Positions 1,091 to 44,865 of a DNA stretch of 64,000 nt are shown here, one piece after another. The notes beneath the pieces were generated by a model. The model searched no databases, was not told the DNA's origin, and saw only the letters and a program-made list of their open reading frames with translations. Source of the DNA: Candidatus Poribacteria bacterium (GTDB lineage: Bacteria > Poribacteria > WGA-4E > PCPOR2b). The stretch covers positions 2,752,001 through 2,816,000 of the forward strand of contig OZ220744.1 in NCBI GenBank assembly GCA_965116925.1, given 5' to 3'. Numbering within the stretch: position 1 is the first letter of the stretch; each line of letters begins with the position of its first letter. The translations under genes and the position numbers were made by a program.

Positions 1091-1915
1091 TTATCCTACC
1101 TCTTCACCATCAAGCCTACCAACCTGCAGATCGATCTCTTCACGGGTCTCCATCTTATCGATTTTGCCGTCCGCCATGTAGAAAATTCGATCCGAGACAT
1201 CAAGCATCTTTGTGTCGTGGGTGGCTGTGATAATCGTGACCCCATTCTCCTCATTTAGACTTTTCAGGAGGTCAATAATTTCAAGCCCGGTCCGTGTGTC
1301 TAGGTTTCCTGTTGGCTCATCCGCGAGGACAATCGCGGGATCGTTTGCGAGGGAGCGCGCAACGGCGACACGTTGTTGCTGACCACCGGAGAGTTCAAGC
1401 GGCTTATGCTGGACCCGTTCTCCTAACCCCACAGTGGTTAGCAGTTCAACCGCTTTTGTGCGGCTATCATCAGCAGTCATCCCAGCGAAAATCATGGGGA
1501 GGGAGACATTTTCGAGGGCGGTCATCACAGGGATGAGGTTGAACGACTGGAAAATGTAACCGATTTTACGGCAGCGCAGCCATGCCAATTCGTAGGCATC
1601 TAGTTGTGCGATATCCACTTCATCTATGTAGACCCTGCCCTCTGTCGGCTTGTCCAAGCCACCGATCATGTTGAAAAGCGTTGACTTACCGGAGCCTGAT
1701 GGTCCCATAATCGAGATGTACTCTCCACGGCGGATTTCAAAGTTGGTGCCTCGCAACGCCTCAACGACAGTGGTGCCCATCTCGTATTTCTTAATTAGAT
1801 TCCTGACCCGTACCGTGTTTTCCTTGGGTAGATCCCTTGCAAATCGGGCGGGCGTTTCTGTCGGCACGGCGGTCTGCCCTGCTGTTTCCGGAGATAGTCC
1901 TTCTAATTCTGCCAT
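1091..1915 (-). CDS. ABC transporter ATP-binding protein, LolD/MacB type
   Basis: Walker A GPSGSGKS, signature LSGGQQQRV, Walker B VLADEPTGNLD, H-loop ATHD. ATG at 1915 directly follows the upstream stop. Confidence 0.95.
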   Translation of the reverse strand: MAELEGLSPETAGQTAVPTETPARFARDLPKENTVRVRNLIKKYEMGTTVVEALRGTNFEIRRGEYISIMGPSGSGKSTLFNMIGGLDKPTEGRVYIDEVDIAQLDAYELAWLRCRKIGYIFQSFNLIPVMTALENVSLPMIFAGMTADDSRTKAVELLTTVGLGERVQHKPLELSGGQQQRVAVARSLANDPAIVLADEPTGNLDTRTGLEIIDLLKSLNEENGVTIITATHDTKMLDVSDRIFYMADGKIDKMETREEIDLQVGRLDGEEVG

Positions 1916-32527: not shown

Positions 32528-33259
32528 TCACCGAGTGTAACGGGCAAAGTAGAACGTCTTGAGCGGCGCCTCCGTATCGTTGATGAGGGTATGCCCTGGG
32601 TTTGACGGTGCAACAGAGACCGCATCGCCCGGAACTTGCCGATAGACGTTCTGGCTCACCACGTGGATGCCGTTCCCCTCTAACATATACCACACCTCAT
32701 CCATATCGTCAGCGTGTCCGTGGGTATCGGGGGTCTGCATCGCATCGATCGTTACCATCAGGACGGAATGCAGCTTCGCGAGTCCATCAGCCTCTCCGAA
32801 AATCGGGTGGACGAGATGGGTCCAATGTCCCTGACTAAGAGGATTCTTCCGATAATTTCTGATCAGGACATCTTCGCGGGGTGTTCCTTCAGCATCGGCG
32901 AGGGTTTCCTCCAATATCAGAAGTTCTAAGGGCGTGGTATTTGCCTCGTTGTTTAGGACATGCGTCGTCCCCGGCGGTACGATAATGCCGTCGCCTTCGC
33001 GGACCTCCTGCTTGAGGTCACCGCCTTCAAAAATTGCCTCCCCATCGACGATGTAGAAAATCAGTTGCCGATCGTCGAAAGATGTCGGTACCGAGGCGAT
33101 TCTCGACTCAAGGTAGCACCGGGAGAAGCTATCAATATAGTTGAGAGTTGCTCCCGGTTTGTGGGGATCGTCGGGATCTTTCTTGGAGAAGATTTCTCGG
33201 CGGATGATGTTGCCGTGTGTGAGACTTGAGGGGGATTGTAACCAACTTCTCATTTCCAT
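32528..33259 (-). CDS. Bicupin protein, copy 1
   Basis: Two cupin motifs: EGDGIIVPPGTTH and HGH...EVWY...PGH. Confidence 0.85.
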   Translation of the reverse strand: MEMRSWLQSPSSLTHGNIIRREIFSKKDPDDPHKPGATLNYIDSFSRCYLESRIASVPTSFDDRQLIFYIVDGEAIFEGGDLKQEVREGDGIIVPPGTTHVLNNEANTTPLELLILEETLADAEGTPREDVLIRNYRKNPLSQGHWTHLVHPIFGEADGLAKLHSVLMVTIDAMQTPDTHGHADDMDEVWYMLEGNGIHVVSQNVYRQVPGDAVSVAPSNPGHTLINDTEAPLKTFYFARYTR

Positions 33260-33341: not shown

Positions 33342-34076
33342 TCAGGGGTCTGCACTGCGTCGAAAGTAGAACGTCTTGAGCGGCACCTCCGTATCGTTGA
33401 TGAGGGTATGTCCTGGATTTGACGGTGCAACAGAGACCGCATCGCCCGGAACTTGCCGGTAGACATTCTGGCTTACCACGTGGATGCCGTTGCCTTCGAG
33501 CATATACCACACCTCATCCATATCGTCGGCATGTCCATGGGTATCAGCGGTCTGCATTGCGTCGATTGTTACCATTAGGACAAAGTGCAGCTTCGCGAGT
33601 CCATCAGTCTCTCCGAAGATGGAGTGGACGAGATGGGTCCAATGCCCTTGAGTCAGGTGTTGTTCTCGGTAGTTTCTGATAAGTACATCTTCGCGGGGTG
33701 CTCCTGGAGCATCGGCGAGGGTTTCTTCCAATATCAGAAATTCTAAGGGCGTGGTATTTGCCTCGTTGTTTAGAACATGCGTCGTCCCTGGCGGCACGAT
33801 GATGCCGTCGCCTTCGCGGACCTCCTGCTTGACGTCGCCGCCCTCGAAAATGGCTTCCCCGTCAACGATGTAGAAAATCAGTTGCCGATCGTCGAAAGAC
33901 GTTGGTACTGATGCGATTCGCGACTCAAGGTAGCACCGAGAGAAGCTATCAATAGAGTTAAGGATTGCTCCCGGTTTGTGGGGATCATCGGGGTCTTTCT
34001 TGGAGAAGATTTCCCGTCTGATGATATTGCCGTGTGTGAGACTTGAGGGGGATTGCAACCAGCTTCTCATTTCCAT
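33342..34076 (-). CDS. Bicupin protein, copy 2 (tandem duplicate)
   Basis: Near-identical to 32528-33259; start placed at the same MEMRSW. Confidence 0.85.
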   Translation of the reverse strand: MEMRSWLQSPSSLTHGNIIRREIFSKKDPDDPHKPGAILNSIDSFSRCYLESRIASVPTSFDDRQLIFYIVDGEAIFEGGDVKQEVREGDGIIVPPGTTHVLNNEANTTPLEFLILEETLADAPGAPREDVLIRNYREQHLTQGHWTHLVHSIFGETDGLAKLHFVLMVTIDAMQTADTHGHADDMDEVWYMLEGNGIHVVSQNVYRQVPGDAVSVAPSNPGHTLINDTEVPLKTFYFRRSADP

Positions 34077-34355
34077 TTTTCGTTCTCTCCCATTTTTTTC
34101 AGACGCAATAATTTTATTCAAACTGACCGCAGAGGCACAGAGAACGCCGAGAAATACAGAGAAGGATTAAAAAAGTAGTGTTAGACATAACCCTTTCTCC
34201 GAAAGAGATTTAATGAAAATTGAAGGTGGTCATATTATTTCTTTTTTTGCCTTTCTCTGTGCCCTCTGCGTCTCTGCGGTGAATCTATCCAGCAAAATTA
34301 TAGCACGATTTCTGAAAAAATGAGAGTCGAAAATGGATTAGCGGTCACAAGAAAA

Positions 34356-38033: not shown

Positions 38034-38062
38034 TTGCGTCACCTTTGTGTATGTGCTATAAT
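38034..38062 (+). promoter_or_regulatory. Sigma70 promoter of smpB, giving a very short leader
   Basis: TTGCGT-N17-TATAAT with an extended TG; ATG only 9 nt downstream. Confidence 0.6.
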
Positions 38063-38071
38063 TCACCCACT

Positions 38072-38536
38072 ATGAAAGCTGAGAAGTCTGTTGCGACTAC
38101 GGGTCCAATTGCTAGGAATAAGAAAGCGCGGTTCGATTATCATTTGATGGATCGTTTCGAGGCAGGGATTGCCCTCCAAGGAACGGAGGTCAAGGCGATT
38201 CGTGCGGGTCGGATGAATTTGACCGATAGCTACGCTCGCGTTGACGATGGGGAGGTCTTTCTGATTGATGCCCATATCGGTCCTTACGAGCAAGGCAGTC
38301 GCGAGAATCATGAGCCGAAGCGGAAGCGGAAACTCCTGTTGAACCGTCGGGAGATTAAGCGGATCGAAGGGAAAACTCGACCGACCGGCATGACGATTGT
38401 GCCGACGAAGGCTTATTTCAGCAAGGGTAGAGTAAAGGTTGAAATCGCAGTGGCGCGTGGTAAGCACGACTACGATAAGCGCGAAGATATGCGGCGGGAA
38501 GTAGATCAACGGGCAATCCAATCGTATATGAGGTAG
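38072..38536 (+). CDS. smpB: SsrA-binding protein
   Basis: NKKARFDY, EAGIALQGTEVKAIR, RKLLL and GKHDYDKRE. Confidence 0.98.
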   Translation: MKAEKSVATTGPIARNKKARFDYHLMDRFEAGIALQGTEVKAIRAGRMNLTDSYARVDDGEVFLIDAHIGPYEQGSRENHEPKRKRKLLLNRREIKRIEGKTRPTGMTIVPTKAYFSKGRVKVEIAVARGKHDYDKREDMRREVDQRAIQSYMR

Positions 38537-38577: not shown

Positions 38578-39033
38578 ATGGCTCTGAAATTTCGGTGTGA
38601 AAACTGTAGTAAAGATATTGCTGTTAGGTTCTTGGAAGTTGATGAGGTCGCCAAATGCAGAAACTGTGGGGCAAGTAATTCTGTTCCCGAATCTGCAGAA
38701 GCCATTAGTGACGAAGCCGCAGAAAGCATAATTAAGGCTACTGTTCCCGAACCAATAGAGGACATTAGTGCGGAAGCCATGAGTGTCGAACCCACGCAAA
38801 GTGTACCTATGGCTAAGGCGTTACGCAGAGTCAGTAGAATAGTAATAGGCATCGGAATTATTGTGGGAATAGTTACGGCTATAAGAGTAATGATTCGACA
38901 TCCCGCGCCCGATCAAACTATGGCAGTGGCTCTTAGCGGAGGGATGACATGGCTTATGAACATGTTTTTTTTCTGCATTCTTAATCTGCTTTGTTTAGGT
39001 ATTGCCAAGGTTGTGGCCTTGTTCAACAGATAG
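38578..39033 (+). CDS. Zinc-ribbon membrane protein
   Basis: CENC...CRNC followed by two C-terminal TM helices; AGGAGG RBS. Confidence 0.75.
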   Translation: MALKFRCENCSKDIAVRFLEVDEVAKCRNCGASNSVPESAEAISDEAAESIIKATVPEPIEDISAEAMSVEPTQSVPMAKALRRVSRIVIGIGIIVGIVTAIRVMIRHPAPDQTMAVALSGGMTWLMNMFFFCILNLLCLGIAKVVALFNR

Positions 39034-39063: not shown

Positions 39064-39653
39064 GGGGGTGAAAAGGTTTCGACGAGAGTAGATGATGTAA
39101 AGGTTGCATGCCGAGGTCTCCGCAGGCCTCGTTAAACAGGCGGAAACAATTTAATTGCCGATGAAGAATTGGCTCTAGCTGCTTAATAAAAGCGGCTCGT
39201 CCGGCTAATTTGCGGTCCCGTCGAGTTAGCCCGACGTCAACAAACGGGCTGTGCGCCTTACTTGTTCTCAAGGGGCATGGCGCGAGATTTAACTTGAGAT
39301 AGTCCGCAGCGAATCCGGCATAAGGGAGTCCTATGGACGAAACACCAAAGCTTATGCTAAGCATGTAGTAGCCTTTATTGAAATGCTCTCGGACGCGGGT
39401 TCGATCAGTCTGGTCGACTTGGAGGGCAACCTCCTCGATTAAACTTGGCTTACATCGGTGAAACCTAAGAGATGGCGACATCTTATGGCAACACCGAGGG
39501 ATTGTATGGTCCTGTAGAGACTGTAATGATAGGAGATAATGTCAACGACAAATCTAGATCTCCTATAACACGCTAGGCTCCACCATTTTGGGTGGATGAA
39601 GATATAGTCCACGCCTCTGGGAAACCGGGGGGTCACGTGTCCCGCCACCTCCA
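39064..39653 (+). ncRNA. ssrA: tmRNA, intron-interrupted (exons 39064-39405 and 39640-39653)
   Basis: 5' GGGGGTGAAAAGGTTTCGAC; tag reading frame ADEELALAA* at 39157-39186; acceptor stem GGGGGTG/CACCTCC-A with the G3.U wobble; downstream of smpB. Confidence 0.95.
39406..39639 (+). ncRNA. Group I intron (234 nt, no ORF) in the tmRNA T-loop
   Basis: 5' exon ends in U paired to G in P1; R element GAGACTGTA and S element AAGATATAGTCC; P4 CGGTG/CACCG; GNRA-capped P2, P5 and P9; terminal G. Splicing restores GCGGG-TTCGATT-CCCGC. Confidence 0.92.
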
Positions 39654-39777
39654 TCTTTTTTAAGATTTTGAAACATTGGTTCAAGTGTAGTTACGGCATA
39701 CGGAGTATGCCTACTACTTTGGTTCATTGGTTCATTTTGTTTTCACGTTTCACGCATCACGTTTCATCTCCCATGAA

Positions 39778-39860: not shown

Positions 39861-40559
39861 GTGCAAACGTTAAACCGAGCCAAGCTCATCGTGAGATCGC
39901 ATGTGAACGATCTCCTAGAGAAAGCAGAAGATACGCGTAAAACGCGAGGTCTTATGGTGGAAGAGATGCGCCAGAACGTGCGCCATGTCAAGGCTTTAAT
40001 CGCAGGTGCGATCGCAGATCTCAAGCTGATCGAACGGGAGATCGACGCTCATGGAACTGAAGCCAATAGGTGGGAGGATAAAGCGGTCTTCGCTTTAAAA
40101 AAAGGGGAGGAAGATCTCGCCCGTCGTGCACTCACTCGCAAAGGTGAGCATATAAAGAAGGCAGACCTGTATCGGGAACAGATCGAGACACAGCAGGAGA
40201 TAATTGACTCCCTCAAGTCCAGTTTGAAAACGCTGGAGACCAAGCTAGACACAATACGCTATCAAACTGCGAAATTGGCTGCCGCTGAAAGTTTAGGGGC
40301 ATTGCAATCCACCGTCGGCGCAACACCACCGGCTGATACAGTGATTGATACGACTGCGTTTGATGCCTACGATCGGTTGGTTGATCGTGTACGCGATCTC
40401 GAAGTACATGCAGAGGCGTTAGCGGAGTTGACGCAAGGCGATGACCTTGAGCAGCAATTTCATGAACTTGAGAACAGCGAAAAGGTCGAGGCGGACCTTG
40501 CGGCATTAAAAACCAAAGTCCGTCCTGATGATCCAGGGAGTGCACCCGCAACGGAGTGA
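39861..40559 (+). CDS. PspA/IM30-family protein, copy 1
   Basis: VNDLLEKAED, WEDKAVFAL..GEEDLARRAL and LEQQF..LE...VEADLAALK. Confidence 0.9.
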   Translation: MQTLNRAKLIVRSHVNDLLEKAEDTRKTRGLMVEEMRQNVRHVKALIAGAIADLKLIEREIDAHGTEANRWEDKAVFALKKGEEDLARRALTRKGEHIKKADLYREQIETQQEIIDSLKSSLKTLETKLDTIRYQTAKLAAAESLGALQSTVGATPPADTVIDTTAFDAYDRLVDRVRDLEVHAEALAELTQGDDLEQQFHELENSEKVEADLAALKTKVRPDDPGSAPATE

Positions 40560-40942
40560 TGCGGATGGCTGATTTTCATCGGTTACCGTCTCGTATTCAG
40601 GAGACAACCCAAGATCAACTGAGTGCAGATGAACAGGTCCGATTGTGCACCCTTGGCAGGTCTAGCCTGCTGAACCCCGATTTTGTTGTTATCACTTCTG
40701 ACCGGGTGTTGGTGTTGGAGGAGCGTCAGATGGGCAGTATGAGTGCTTCATACATCAACATTCGGTGCAATCTCTCATTTGCTCAGATTACGGGGGTCAA
40801 ACTGGACCAAAGCCTCAAACACCGCATCTTTGGTCAAGCTGCCCTTGAAATTACGGTGAACGGGGATAAACATCTGATTGACAACATCAGCTACCGCGAT
40901 GCGAAACGCGCAATGGCATTGATTTCCTCTTGCCACGAATAA
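40556..40942 (+). CDS. Bacterial PH-domain-like protein
   Basis: VVITSDRVLVL...FAQITGV...FG..ALEI pattern; overlaps the pspA stop codon. Confidence 0.65.
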   Translation: MMRMADFHRLPSRIQETTQDQLSADEQVRLCTLGRSSLLNPDFVVITSDRVLVLEERQMGSMSASYINIRCNLSFAQITGVKLDQSLKHRIFGQAALEITVNGDKHLIDNISYRDAKRAMALISSCHE

Positions 40943-40961
40943 CTTGTAGGAGGAAGCAGAT

Positions 40962-41654
40962 ATGGGCGATTTTCTAAACTACATCCTTGTTTGGTATAAT
41001 GTCTGGTTCACAGCACCGATTGCGTGTGTCTTTCTCTTTGCCATCTTCCAACTTGTTATGGGCGGTCTGGATTTTGGGGGCGGAGATACCGATGTAGGTG
41101 CTGATGCCGATGTAGAGGTTGATACCGATGTCGATGCAGACGTTAATGTTAACGGTAGTTCAGACGGAGGTGGCTTTTTCCCCGGCGTATTGGGGATTTT
41201 GAACGTTGGCAAAGTACCTTTTACGATTCTCCTGATGGCACTTTTTGGGACGTGGGGAATTTCGGGCTTGATTGTTAATGAGTTTCTGAATATCAACGTT
41301 CACTCCTCGCGCTCTACGCTCTGGATTTCTTTCGGGGCTGCGCTACTGTGTAGTATATTCGGCACCCGTTATCTCGCACTAGGGCTTTCAAAGCTATTTC
41401 CTGAAAGCGACCGCGCCACTAACGACTCTCACTTAATCGGTTTAAGAGGGCGTGTGATTAGTGGTCGGGTCACAACTACCTTTGGGACAGCCCGTGTCCC
41501 AGTGCCACAGGGACCCGAATTGACCGTCAGTTGTCGTGTCCGTGAGGGCGAGGATATTCCCTTAAAGGGAGACACGGTGGTTCTCATTGATTACGATTTG
41601 CAGGGACGGATTTTTGAAGTGACGAAAGAGGATAGTTCACTGATTTCGTTGTAA
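40962..41654 (+). CDS. YqiJ/NfeD-like membrane protein with a C-terminal OB fold
   Basis: TM helix, DADVD repeats, LNVGKVPF and LIGLRGRV; directly precedes the flotillin. Confidence 0.85.
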   Translation: MGDFLNYILVWYNVWFTAPIACVFLFAIFQLVMGGLDFGGGDTDVGADADVEVDTDVDADVNVNGSSDGGGFFPGVLGILNVGKVPFTILLMALFGTWGISGLIVNEFLNINVHSSRSTLWISFGAALLCSIFGTRYLALGLSKLFPESDRATNDSHLIGLRGRVISGRVTTTFGTARVPVPQGPELTVSCRVREGEDIPLKGDTVVLIDYDLQGRIFEVTKEDSSLISL

Positions 41655-41690
41655 TGGTTCGACGCGTATCCTTACGCGAGGAGGTTGAAA

Positions 41691-43532
41691 ATGGAAGGGC
41701 TTAGTGCGATACCTTTTTTCGGTATTATTGCTGTAATTGCAGCGTTTTTCCTGATTATGTTTTTTACCTACAAGGCGTTGTATAAAAAGGCACCTGCCGA
41801 TGCCGCCCTGGTCATTTCAGGTGGAAAAAACAAGAGCGTTGTTTTTGGCGGTAAAATCGTTAATCCACTGACAAAAGCCACACAACTAGTCTCGTTGAAT
41901 ACCATGCAGCTTTTAGTTCAGCGAACCGGACCGGATGCGTTAATTACAAAGGACAGTCTGCGTGTCGATATTGAAGCCCAATTCTATGTGAAGATTGAAC
42001 CCAATGAACAAGATGTTCTCAATGCGGTTGCGAGCCTTGGGGATAAAACCTTGGAGCCAAACAATGTGAAAGCGCTGCTCGAAGGAAAACTCGTCGGGAT
42101 ACTACGAAGTGTGGCAGCAACGATGGAGCTTCAAGAGCTTCATGAAAAGCGTCAAGATTTTTCAGATCAGGTTCGGGAAAGCTGCAAGGATGACCTTGAA
42201 CAGAACGGTTTTCAACTCGAAAGTGTTGCGGTGACGAATCTTGATCAGACCCCGCTTGACCAACTCGATGAGAACAACCGTTTTGATGTGGTCGCTATTC
42301 AGACTATCAATCAGGAGGTCCAAGAGCGGCAAACGCGGACAGAACGAATTAAGCATGAGAACAGAGTTAAGCAAGAAGAGGATAAACTGAAAGCGGACCT
42401 GGCGATCAAGCAGCAGGAGGAAGCAACGGAGACCGAGAGCCTAGAGGTCGAGAAGCGGCTGGCATTTGCTCAAGAGATGCAACGCAAAGAGGTTGCGACG
42501 AATAAAGTTGAACAAGAACGTGTCGTCAAAGAGGCGGAACTTCAGCAACAACAAGCCCTTGAGGAGGCACGCATCCGTCAGGAAGAAGCGGTCCAAGCTT
42601 CGCAGATTCAGCAGAAACAGCGGATTGAAACTGCTCGAATTGATCAGGAGCGGCAGGTCCAGGAAGCGGAGATTGAGCAGGGACGCACCGTCGAAGAAGC
42701 GCGCGTCCGTCAACAACAGGCGATCGAGGAAGCCAATGTAGCCAGACGAATCGTGCTTGTTGAGAGGAATCGCGAAGAAAAAGAGGCCCAAGCCGCAAGC
42801 GAAATTCAGGTTGCGGTGAAGGAGAAGGAACGCGAAATTGCCTCTACAGATCGATTGGCTGCAACCGCAGAACGAACCAGATCTGAAGCCCAAGTCTTGA
42901 CGGTGGAAGCGATTGAGGAGGCTGAACGTAATAGCCGAATTGCGTTAATCAAAGCCGAACAGGAAGCGGATGAAGAGCGCATTTCAAAGGAACGACTGGC
43001 GAATGCCGAAGCCTACGCGGTCATCGAAGCCGCTAAAGCGGAGCGAGAAGCCGCTGTTCTCAGAGCAGAAGCACAGAAGACCCTCGCTGAGGCACTTCTG
43101 GTGGAGGCAAAAGCGAAGGCGGAAGGGGAAGAGGCACTTATTGAAGCAAAGAACTCAGCGGATCAGCGAATTCTAAATAACGAGGCGCTGTTGAAACTGA
43201 TCCAATCCCTGCCCGAAGTCACAGGTGAATTGATGAAACCCGCGGAACAGATTGAGAGCATTCGCATCCTTGATCTTGGCGGCAACGGTTCCGGCAACGG
43301 TGCATCGGGCGGGAACGTTGGTAAGATTTTCGGATCCATTTTGCAGGCTGGTGCAGCGTTGCCAATGCTGAAGGAGGTCCTGAATTTTGGAGGTATTGAC
43401 ACTCAAGATCTCGCTAAGACCGTGAGCCAATACGTTCCCGGCTTGGATCTGACTGCCAAAACGGAAGCACCGGAGTCAACTGACCAAGATTCAACAAGCA
43501 CTGGCGGAGAAGACAAGCCTGAATCGGTATAA
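41691..43532 (+). CDS. Flotillin/SPFH protein, YqiK-like
   Basis: LITKDSLRVD, LESVAVTNLDQT, long EA-rich coiled coil and KPAEQIESIRI. Confidence 0.92.
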   Translation: MEGLSAIPFFGIIAVIAAFFLIMFFTYKALYKKAPADAALVISGGKNKSVVFGGKIVNPLTKATQLVSLNTMQLLVQRTGPDALITKDSLRVDIEAQFYVKIEPNEQDVLNAVASLGDKTLEPNNVKALLEGKLVGILRSVAATMELQELHEKRQDFSDQVRESCKDDLEQNGFQLESVAVTNLDQTPLDQLDENNRFDVVAIQTINQEVQERQTRTERIKHENRVKQEEDKLKADLAIKQQEEATETESLEVEKRLAFAQEMQRKEVATNKVEQERVVKEAELQQQQALEEARIRQEEAVQASQIQQKQRIETARIDQERQVQEAEIEQGRTVEEARVRQQQAIEEANVARRIVLVERNREEKEAQAASEIQVAVKEKEREIASTDRLAATAERTRSEAQVLTVEAIEEAERNSRIALIKAEQEADEERISKERLANAEAYAVIEAAKAEREAAVLRAEAQKTLAEALLVEAKAKAEGEEALIEAKNSADQRILNNEALLKLIQSLPEVTGELMKPAEQIESIRILDLGGNGSGNGASGGNVGKIFGSILQAGAALPMLKEVLNFGGIDTQDLAKTVSQYVPGLDLTAKTEAPESTDQDSTSTGGEDKPESV

Positions 43533-43564
43533 CAGGCAATCAAAGGTTGTCGATGACAAGTAAG

Positions 43565-43582
43565 TGGCAACATTCTTGTAAC
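43565..43582 (+). promoter_or_regulatory. Sigma54-like motif upstream of DUF151-pspA copy 2
   Basis: TGGCAACATTCTTGTAAC. Confidence 0.5.
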
Positions 43583-43641
43583 ATCCCTTGCACCATCGAC
43601 GACTCCAATTGAATTTCAAATTAGAAACCAAGGAGTCTCAG

Positions 43642-44175
43642 ATGAAAGAACAAGCCGATGAACACCTCCAAATGAACGGAAAGAATATGATCGCAGTGGA
43701 AGTGGCGTTCATTTCTATTGATGCGAGTAGTGGTGCACCCATCCTCTTTTTGAGGGAGACAGAAGGCGATCCAAAATTGGTGCTACCGATATGGATTGGA
43801 CAGGGAGAAGCACTCTCGATTCAATTCCAGCTCAAGGGTGAAGAGCCGCTACGTCCGATGACGCATGATCTGATGAAAAACATCATCGAAAACCTTGATG
43901 CGACAGTTGATGCGGTCTACGTACATACCATGAAGGACTCGACCTATTTCGGGCAGATCAATGTGGTAGTCAACGGCAAAACCTTGGAGATTGATGCGCG
44001 TCCAAGCGATTCGATCGCGCTCGCCTTGAGATTAAGGGCACCTATCTATGTGGCAGAATCGATTGTTCAAGAGATTGGCTTTCCTGAGACGGAGTTGAGA
44101 GAGGCAGAGCGGCAGCAGTCTCAAGACGAGTTAGAACATTTAGATGAAGAAACACTGGGCAGATATACAGTATAA
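43642..44175 (+). CDS. Bifunctional nuclease family protein (DUF151)
   Basis: LPIWIG..EA, RPMTHDL and IDARPSDSIALA; AAGGAG RBS. Confidence 0.93.
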   Translation: MKEQADEHLQMNGKNMIAVEVAFISIDASSGAPILFLRETEGDPKLVLPIWIGQGEALSIQFQLKGEEPLRPMTHDLMKNIIENLDATVDAVYVHTMKDSTYFGQINVVVNGKTLEIDARPSDSIALALRLRAPIYVAESIVQEIGFPETELREAERQQSQDELEHLDEETLGRYTV

Positions 44176-44205
44176 CCGTTGAGATGGCTAAGGGAGTGAC
44201 CACCA

Positions 44206-44865
44206 ATGCCAATCTTTGAGAAAATCAGGCGGATATTCAATTCAAACATAAATGACCTGCTAGATCGGGTTGAAGATCCGGAAAAGATCTTGAATCAACT
44301 CTTGGAGGATATGCAGCATGAACTCAAAGAGGTAAAAATTCAAGTTGCTGCGGCAATTCGGGATGCCAACAAGTTTGAAGCGCAGTATAAGGAGAACTCA
44401 GAGAGCGCTGAGAAGTGGGAGAAACGCGCCATTGTGTTTATTCAGAACGGCGATGATGCCCGCGCGAAAGAAGCCCTGCGCCGCAAGCGGTCTGCCGACG
44501 AATTGGCAGCGGGTTTTCGTGAACAATTTGAGGCGCAACAAGAGAGCGTTTCCGTACTTAAAGATGGGTTGACAACCTTAGAACAAAAAATTGAAGAGGC
44601 AAAGAGCAAACGTGCCTTGCTGATTGCTCGCCAAAGACGGGCAGAGGCGGAACGGACAATCCATCAAACCGTGTCGGGTATTTCGGATTCCAGTGCGTTG
44701 AACGCTTTTGATCGGATGCAGGACCGGGTGCTTGATGCGGAAGCGGAGGCTGAAGCATTTAGCGAAATGCGTCAACCTAGTTTGGAGGATGAGTTTGATA
44801 AGCTCGACAAGAAAGACGAAATTGATGATGAGCTCGCCAAACTCAAAGCCCGCTTAAAAGAATGA
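44206..44865 (+). CDS. PspA/IM30-family protein, copy 2
   Basis: SNINDLLDRVEDPEK, AFDRMQDRV and IDDELAKLKA. Confidence 0.93.
   Translation: MPIFEKIRRIFNSNINDLLDRVEDPEKILNQLLEDMQHELKEVKIQVAAAIRDANKFEAQYKENSESAEKWEKRAIVFIQNGDDARAKEALRRKRSADELAAGFREQFEAQQESVSVLKDGLTTLEQKIEEAKSKRALLIARQRRAEAERTIHQTVSGISDSSALNAFDRMQDRVLDAEAEAEAFSEMRQPSLEDEFDKLDKKDEIDDELAKLKARLKE

Follow-up and report, generated by a model that had tools for sequence, protein, structure and literature searches.

The one recognizable tmRNA gene of this Candidatus Poribacteria bacterium is broken inside its T-arm, which raises the question of how a housekeeping RNA could be produced from such a gene and from where the interruption came. 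In the 64,000-nucleotide stretch of DNA analysed here (the window), ssrA occupies positions 39064-39653 of the plus strand, on which its parts, the intron helices and smpB also lie, and its T-arm is broken after TTCGAT (39405) and resumes at 39640. We hold with good confidence that this sole tmRNA gene is split at T-loop position 7 by an intron which is likely self-splicing and likely what is left of a selfish homing intron after loss of its endonuclease. Exon 1 (39064..39405), defined by its match to the Rfam tmRNA model RF00023 and by boundaries taken from intronless relatives, contains the 5' strand of the acceptor stem, the tag frame, the pseudoknot region, the 5' strand of the T stem and TTCGAT, its 3' end (position 39405) being GCGGGTTCGAT. 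Exon 2 (39640..39653), the sequence of which occurs in one copy in the genome, supplies the last T-loop base, the 3' strands of the T stem and acceptor stem and the discriminator A. The insertion point thus falls between bases six and seven of the T-loop (TTCGAT and T), and removal of the insert restores the T-arm of the host RNA: when the exons are joined in silico the acceptor stem, which is of the alanyl type, forms 7 of 7 pairs, including G3.U70, and all 5 pairs of the T stem form as well. TCT comes after the discriminator, in agreement with the statement of the initial annotation that CCA is not encoded. Read from the sequence, the tag frame (39157..39186) has a resume codon and specifies ADEELALAA and a stop, a peptide identical in all 18 genus members examined, and smpB, the gene for the protein partner of tmRNA (38045..38536; Pfam PF01668, E 4.3e-58), is situated about 530 nt upstream.

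It had been anticipated that annotation tools could miss such a gene, and indeed ARAGORN reports no tmRNA at the ssrA locus, while the RF00023 match (136.7 bits at 39072-39407, cut-off 47) is clipped at both ends. This match is the only one of eight above the cut-off in a one-contig, 99% complete genome, the remainder being short and weak. An intact ssrA elsewhere in the genome, which together with a lack of spliced junction reads had been named at the outset as a refutation, was looked for and none was found, nor was an attR copy. A scan for promoters and terminators returned 0 and 0.

The interruption itself (39406..39639; 234 nt) starts after U39405 and ends with G39639. The claim that a group I intron here interrupts the T-loop of tmRNA is borne out by the core helices and by empty sites in relatives, and the helices P1 to P9 and the extra stem originally named are all present. 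P1 (39401..39417; TCGATCA/TGGTCGA) places U39405.G39413 at the 5' splice site, P2 (39421..39434) has a GCAA loop and shows compensatory changes at all 5 of its pairs, and the 5' strand of P3 (CTTGGC, 39444..39449) finds its partner GCTAGG at 39572-39577, whereas the P4-P5-P6 domain (39455..39513) and P8 (39579..39596) were delineated by helix inspection and homologue alignment. The 5' strand of P7 (39517..39523), with a bulged A39518, has its partner at 39605-39610 and includes the pair G39519-C39609, which from established group I chemistry we take to be the guanosine-site pair. Of the seven P7 pairs initially drawn we count five together with the G-C pair at the bulged A, since the final two are not conserved in other family members. 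An extra stem (39529..39566) in the P7.1 region lies between P7 and P3', and as extra stems at this place mark subgroup IA, that label is plausible for the intron. P9 (39614..39631) carries a GAAA loop and is followed by only 8 nt, and by inspection P10 with exon 2 is minimal (one U.G). The Rfam model Intron_gpI (RF00028) matches positions 39396-39631 with 37.3 bits (E 7.8e-8), which is below its gathering cut-off of 50. As stated in the available text of bioRxiv 2020.01.27.920355, Intron_gpI has no bacterial seeds, and 18-20 bits were used there. The minimum-free-energy fold has a z of -1.94, in itself weak evidence.

Comparison with homologues is consistent with this structure. From 32 parsed homologues we aligned 18 short ones, omitting the long introns along with a few more, and 61 pairs were counted. 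In it 93.7% of the cells pair, against 84.8% with shuffling (a value reached in 0 of 500 shuffles) and 36-49% in slid controls, and two-sided change occurs in 24 pairs against 17.8 shuffled (1/500), figures that overstate significance as the homologues are related and the structure was derived from the window. The count of further pair types was not above the shuffles (399/500). P3 is paired in 100% of the cells with two-sided change in 3 of its 6 pairs, the extra stem in 98%, and P9 in only 70.6% in the automatic alignment. All 18 homologues have the same U.G at the 5' splice site, the same G-C pair in the guanosine site and the same terminal G; P7 is likewise invariant (18/18) and hence silent on covariation. 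Judged from these aligned sequences, the core of P3-P7-P8 and P4-P6 is intact and supported by covariation.

By analogy with established group I chemistry, P7 would bind a free guanosine for attack at the P1 U.G pair, upon which the terminal G would occupy the guanosine site and guide ligation of the exons to give TTCGATT; CCA would be added after ligation by one of the two poly(A)-polymerase-family enzymes present in the genome. Splicing is likely, because the intron is conserved and because there is no other ssrA. The RNA data available consist of contigs from seven RNA runs and from one more run of unspecified type. Intron-containing contigs occur in six of the seven RNA runs, from four studies, though contigs are silent on level and the libraries possibly contain DNA; in X10 an intron contig is absent. 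The joint of 39405 with 39640 was not seen among the matches listed, but contig assembly may clip a short spliced end, so that this absence carries no weight, and the contigs of the 7 RNA runs yielded no spliced junction attributable to an intron-bearing strain. Exon-joined contigs do occur in X1, X2, X6 and X10, with 2-5 differences from exon 1 of the window, that of X1 at 39375 being the allele of the intronless G008, G009, G010 and G012; we rejected them as proof of splicing because their alleles belong to other strains. Missing upstream cover in X1 and X3 was also set aside as evidence, since relatives share no more than 41-79% identity in the upstream ORF.

The initial annotation took ribosome rescue to depend on splicing. 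This holds for trans-translation, which would so depend, but is overstated for rescue as a whole because the genome encodes an NFACT/RqcH-like protein, presumably a rescue backup; an ArfB-sized protein was not found in the genome, in which the two release-factor-family matches are of 356 and 361 aa. With such a backup at hand, with direct evidence of splicing absent and with the Rfam intron score below its cut-off, one might suppose that the insert is inactive or was created by assembly, with the tmRNA non-functional or encoded elsewhere. However, seven further members of the genus have the same intron, which also recurs in independent runs, its catalytic positions are invariant with substitutions that preserve pairs, and the tag frame and smpB are intact with no second ssrA, so that such a supposition is scarcely credible. 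The weak P10 and the 8 nt after P9 imply, on the other hand, that splicing may need help, and a host factor or maturase could be required, which would make splicing a limiting or regulated step of tmRNA supply. The compactness of the intron and the weak P10 are in keeping with this, as are the intron contigs in six of seven RNA runs, but contigs are uninformative on levels when libraries may contain DNA, the frequent clean absence of the intron in sister species speaks against a regulatory role, and the founding member of the class is described as self-splicing in the accessible part of PMC2729099. We accordingly regard a required helper as unlikely.

The distribution of the intron bears on its origin. 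Of 44 tmRNA loci from relatives, 36 are uninterrupted at the exact site, 7 carry the intron, and one more, that of G019, was resolved separately; the read-through loci fix the intron boundaries exactly and, along with the sequence, show the exon and intron coordinates of the initial annotation to have been exact. Within the genus 8 of 18 members (the genome of the window and 7 others) have the intron, as do 9 of 175 phylum relatives for this intron type; G016 and G017, in which a tmRNA match is absent, were excluded from presence counts. Introns in Candidatus Poribacteria records are 93-97% identical to that of the window in the core, four Poribacteria-type introns come from JGI metagenomes, and among the sequencing runs in which the stretch occurs are metagenomes of sponge, coral and marine origin, so that the host is likely sponge-associated. 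Viral contigs contained neither a match to the intron-end pattern nor any relative of the endonuclease described below. A 25-nt match in G050 was dropped as chance. On a 28-genome RpoB tree, in which several nodes have support of only 33-67, intron presence is scattered, with 6 changes as against 6.2 with shuffled labels, and intron and RpoB identity show a modest correlation (rho 0.44, from non-independent pairs). As a separate observation, the RpoB open frames of the genus range from about 1380 to 1800 aa (rpoB loci L105-L125), which suggests variable inteins or insertions.

The absence of a homing endonuclease ORF, also claimed at the outset, was confirmed: neither the ORFs of the window's intron nor a tblastn search of the rest of the genome revealed an intact endonuclease, as an autonomous homing intron would have. 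What had been overlooked is that this absence is likely a derived state, with the site of deletion visible in the extra stem. G019, of the same genus, has a 638-nt intron with 98% core identity to that of the window, the extra ~400 nt of which fall at window position 39545/39546, inside the extra stem, and contain a LAGLIDADG frame (PF14528, E 6e-8) broken by one frameshift. This is the only endonuclease gene found among the 175 phylum relatives. From the conserved 5' part of the G019 tmRNA (L046) ~27 nt are missing, which may be an artefact of assembly, and the frameshift could therefore be an assembly error as well. G003 and L086 retain the gene's final 18-22 codons, and in the window a frame ending DKSRSPITR-stop (39547..39576) matches the C-terminus of intact alleles and overlaps structural strands. 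The loops at the deletion junctions differ, being 19 nt in the window and four relatives (the loop common to G000, G004, G005, G007 and G013), 20 nt in G018 and 48 nt in G003, which suggests at least three deletions in the genus.

Furthermore, a protein search recovered a 14-member 90% cluster, of which 13 proteins, all from metagenomes, are full length (144-146 aa). These intact alleles are distinct from one another, 92-98% identical and known here as proteins, apart from their DNA context; they end in GKSTSPI[T/I]R (KSKSPIIR in one), which is a translation of the intron core, and the protein resembles the homodimeric I-MsoI and I-CreI (E 1e-5). The RNA-library contig X11 crosses at 39545 from the intron into the start of the endonuclease. 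None of the four Poribacteria-type introns from JGI metagenomes has an intact endonuclease. In the wider family, an intact frame occupies the same loop in 8 of 30 parsed introns (from 34 loci) and a split frame in 1 (Pfam was run on one). Eight records from Omnitrophota, Clostridia and Planctomycetota (L066, L071, L075, L079, L080, L094, L096 and L097) have introns at the same site with 57-64% core identity and a single-motif LAGLIDADG frame in the same loop, with short forms bearing deletion remnants as well, and the five proteins tested share 44-53% identity with that of the Poribacteria type. In these records the frame ends ahead of the 3' strand of the stem, whereas the Poribacteria-type frame crosses that strand and stops in P3'; the Omnitrophota forms also have one more hairpin after P7. 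The L072 intron (1215-1800, minus strand) and L167 have a 364-nt insert in the loop with little endonuclease similarity except at its end, which could be either a heavily decayed endonuclease gene or another insertion.

A cycle of invasion, decay and loss was reportedly described for homing endonucleases by Goddard and Burt in 1999 (cited in PMC3984707); here empty, full, broken and deleted states are all present within one genus, homing itself being the step that we infer. In such a cycle, an intron with a single-motif LAGLIDADG gene would spread by homing into empty ssrA alleles, the endonuclease gene would then be deleted, and at times the intron would be cleanly lost, while selection would continue to maintain the ribozyme, since the cell still has to produce tmRNA. 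The compact 234-nt form would thus likely be a deletion product within a homing-and-loss cycle. A purely vertical history, in which an ancestor of the genus or of the order gained the intron once, long ago, and clean loss and endonuclease decay then occurred repeatedly with no recent homing, has several points in its favor: one gain and six losses fit the tree at the same cost as six gains, the Poribacteria-type introns form a single clade (support 100) while related introns from other families stand further off (86-87% core identity), and the intron has diverged to a similar extent as exon 1. Yet the 13 distinct intact alleles imply that the endonuclease gene is still selected, the common ancestor of the five genomes that share the 19-nt loop also gave rise to G018 and G019 with other states, and G003, the deepest branch, is nearer to G018 in the intron (0.96) than in exon 1 (0.93). 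We therefore consider strictly vertical descent doubtful, and prefer homing followed by decay on account of the intact alleles and mixed junctions. The initial annotation had further proposed that the intron disrupts the ssrA segment used as attB, and it might be kept because it thereby blocks genomic islands. The T-loop sequence is indeed split, G000, G007 and G013 lack the joined 20-mer, and tmRNA genes are common island sites according to the accessible text of PMC11915505. However, a look at island occupancy in relatives showed an island in 0 of 10 intronless ones: in nine pspA lies within ~250 nt after ssrA, the tenth has a DDE transposase and not an integrase, and in the two intronless genomes tested the site is single-copy with the attR duplicate absent. 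No island pressure at ssrA is seen in this sample, and a role of the intron in blocking integration is very improbable.

Among six intron-bearing relatives, pspA is within 600 nt of ssrA in five, and G013 has other genes there, of which five were scanned, with housekeeping Pfam families in three and an integrase in none. In G008 (L129) a 417-aa DDE transposase lies ~100 nt after the intronless ssrA. In the window two REP-like repeats (39690-39720, a GGCATAC/GTATGCC hairpin, and 39736-39766) with ~135 and ~150 BLAST matches in the genome directly follow ssrA, and further on comes a conserved envelope-stress-like cluster (39861-44865) that encodes two PspA/IM30 proteins, a bacterial PH protein, YqiJ, flotillin and a bifunctional nuclease; seven of 16 relatives have a shortened yqiJ and lack flotillin. 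Between smpB and ssrA, a fast-evolving 151-aa ORF (38578-39033) with Cys pairs and predicted-looking membrane segments has no Pfam match, is 41-79% identical in relatives and is missing in G003 and G014. Two near-identical tandem ORFs (32528-33259 and 33342-34121) encode what, by motif recall, we take to be cupin-like proteins.

Intron-form tmRNA genes were reportedly first described by Williams in 2002. A total of 343 was counted in bioRxiv 2020.01.27.920355 and 883 from 21 phyla by Nawrocki, Petrov and Williams in 2025 (PMC11915505), most at T-loop position 7, as given in the accessible portions of these papers; the initial description of tmRNA T-loop introns as rare was hence overstated. 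In the same text, 36 of the 883 carry an endonuclease gene, which in 19 of the first 23 is in the P7.1 region. The intron of the window shares with the position-7 class the site after TTCGAT, the U.G at -1, the terminal G, the extra stem after P7 and the usual lack of an endonuclease, and at 234 nt is shorter than the class average of 293 nt given there. The extra stem at 39529-39566 is also marked in the published alignment of PMC11915505, as available, whose 98-sequence seed contains five records from our own pattern search, among them the Poribacteria record L086, nearly letter-identical to the window in P2-P4. The 287-nt tmRNA intron of Clostridium botulinum, called self-splicing in the part of PMC2729099 available, comes from a different phylum and, likened by description, has the same 5' exon end (CGAU substrate). 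The name Poribacteria does not occur in the 15 literature matches listed of 181.

The intron thus belongs to the catalogued position-7 tmRNA class, and class, site and phylum are already on record; what would be added here, of modest value, is that the life cycle of the endonuclease appears to be visible within one genus. In practical terms, genomes of this kind may be wrongly scored as lacking ssrA or as having a truncated one, and the intact endonuclease alleles make both target site and homing testable. The understanding of tmRNA and of group I introns is unchanged. We lean, by a small measure, towards the view that the sponge-associated Poribacteria are in the midst of an active homing cycle at ssrA, in which an I-MsoI-like homodimeric endonuclease reading the inverted repeat of the T-arm would convert empty alleles, and in which deleted forms would recur and may travel between species. 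Should this be so, the presence of all stages in one genus would offer a testable bacterial case of invasion, decay and loss in a housekeeping RNA gene.
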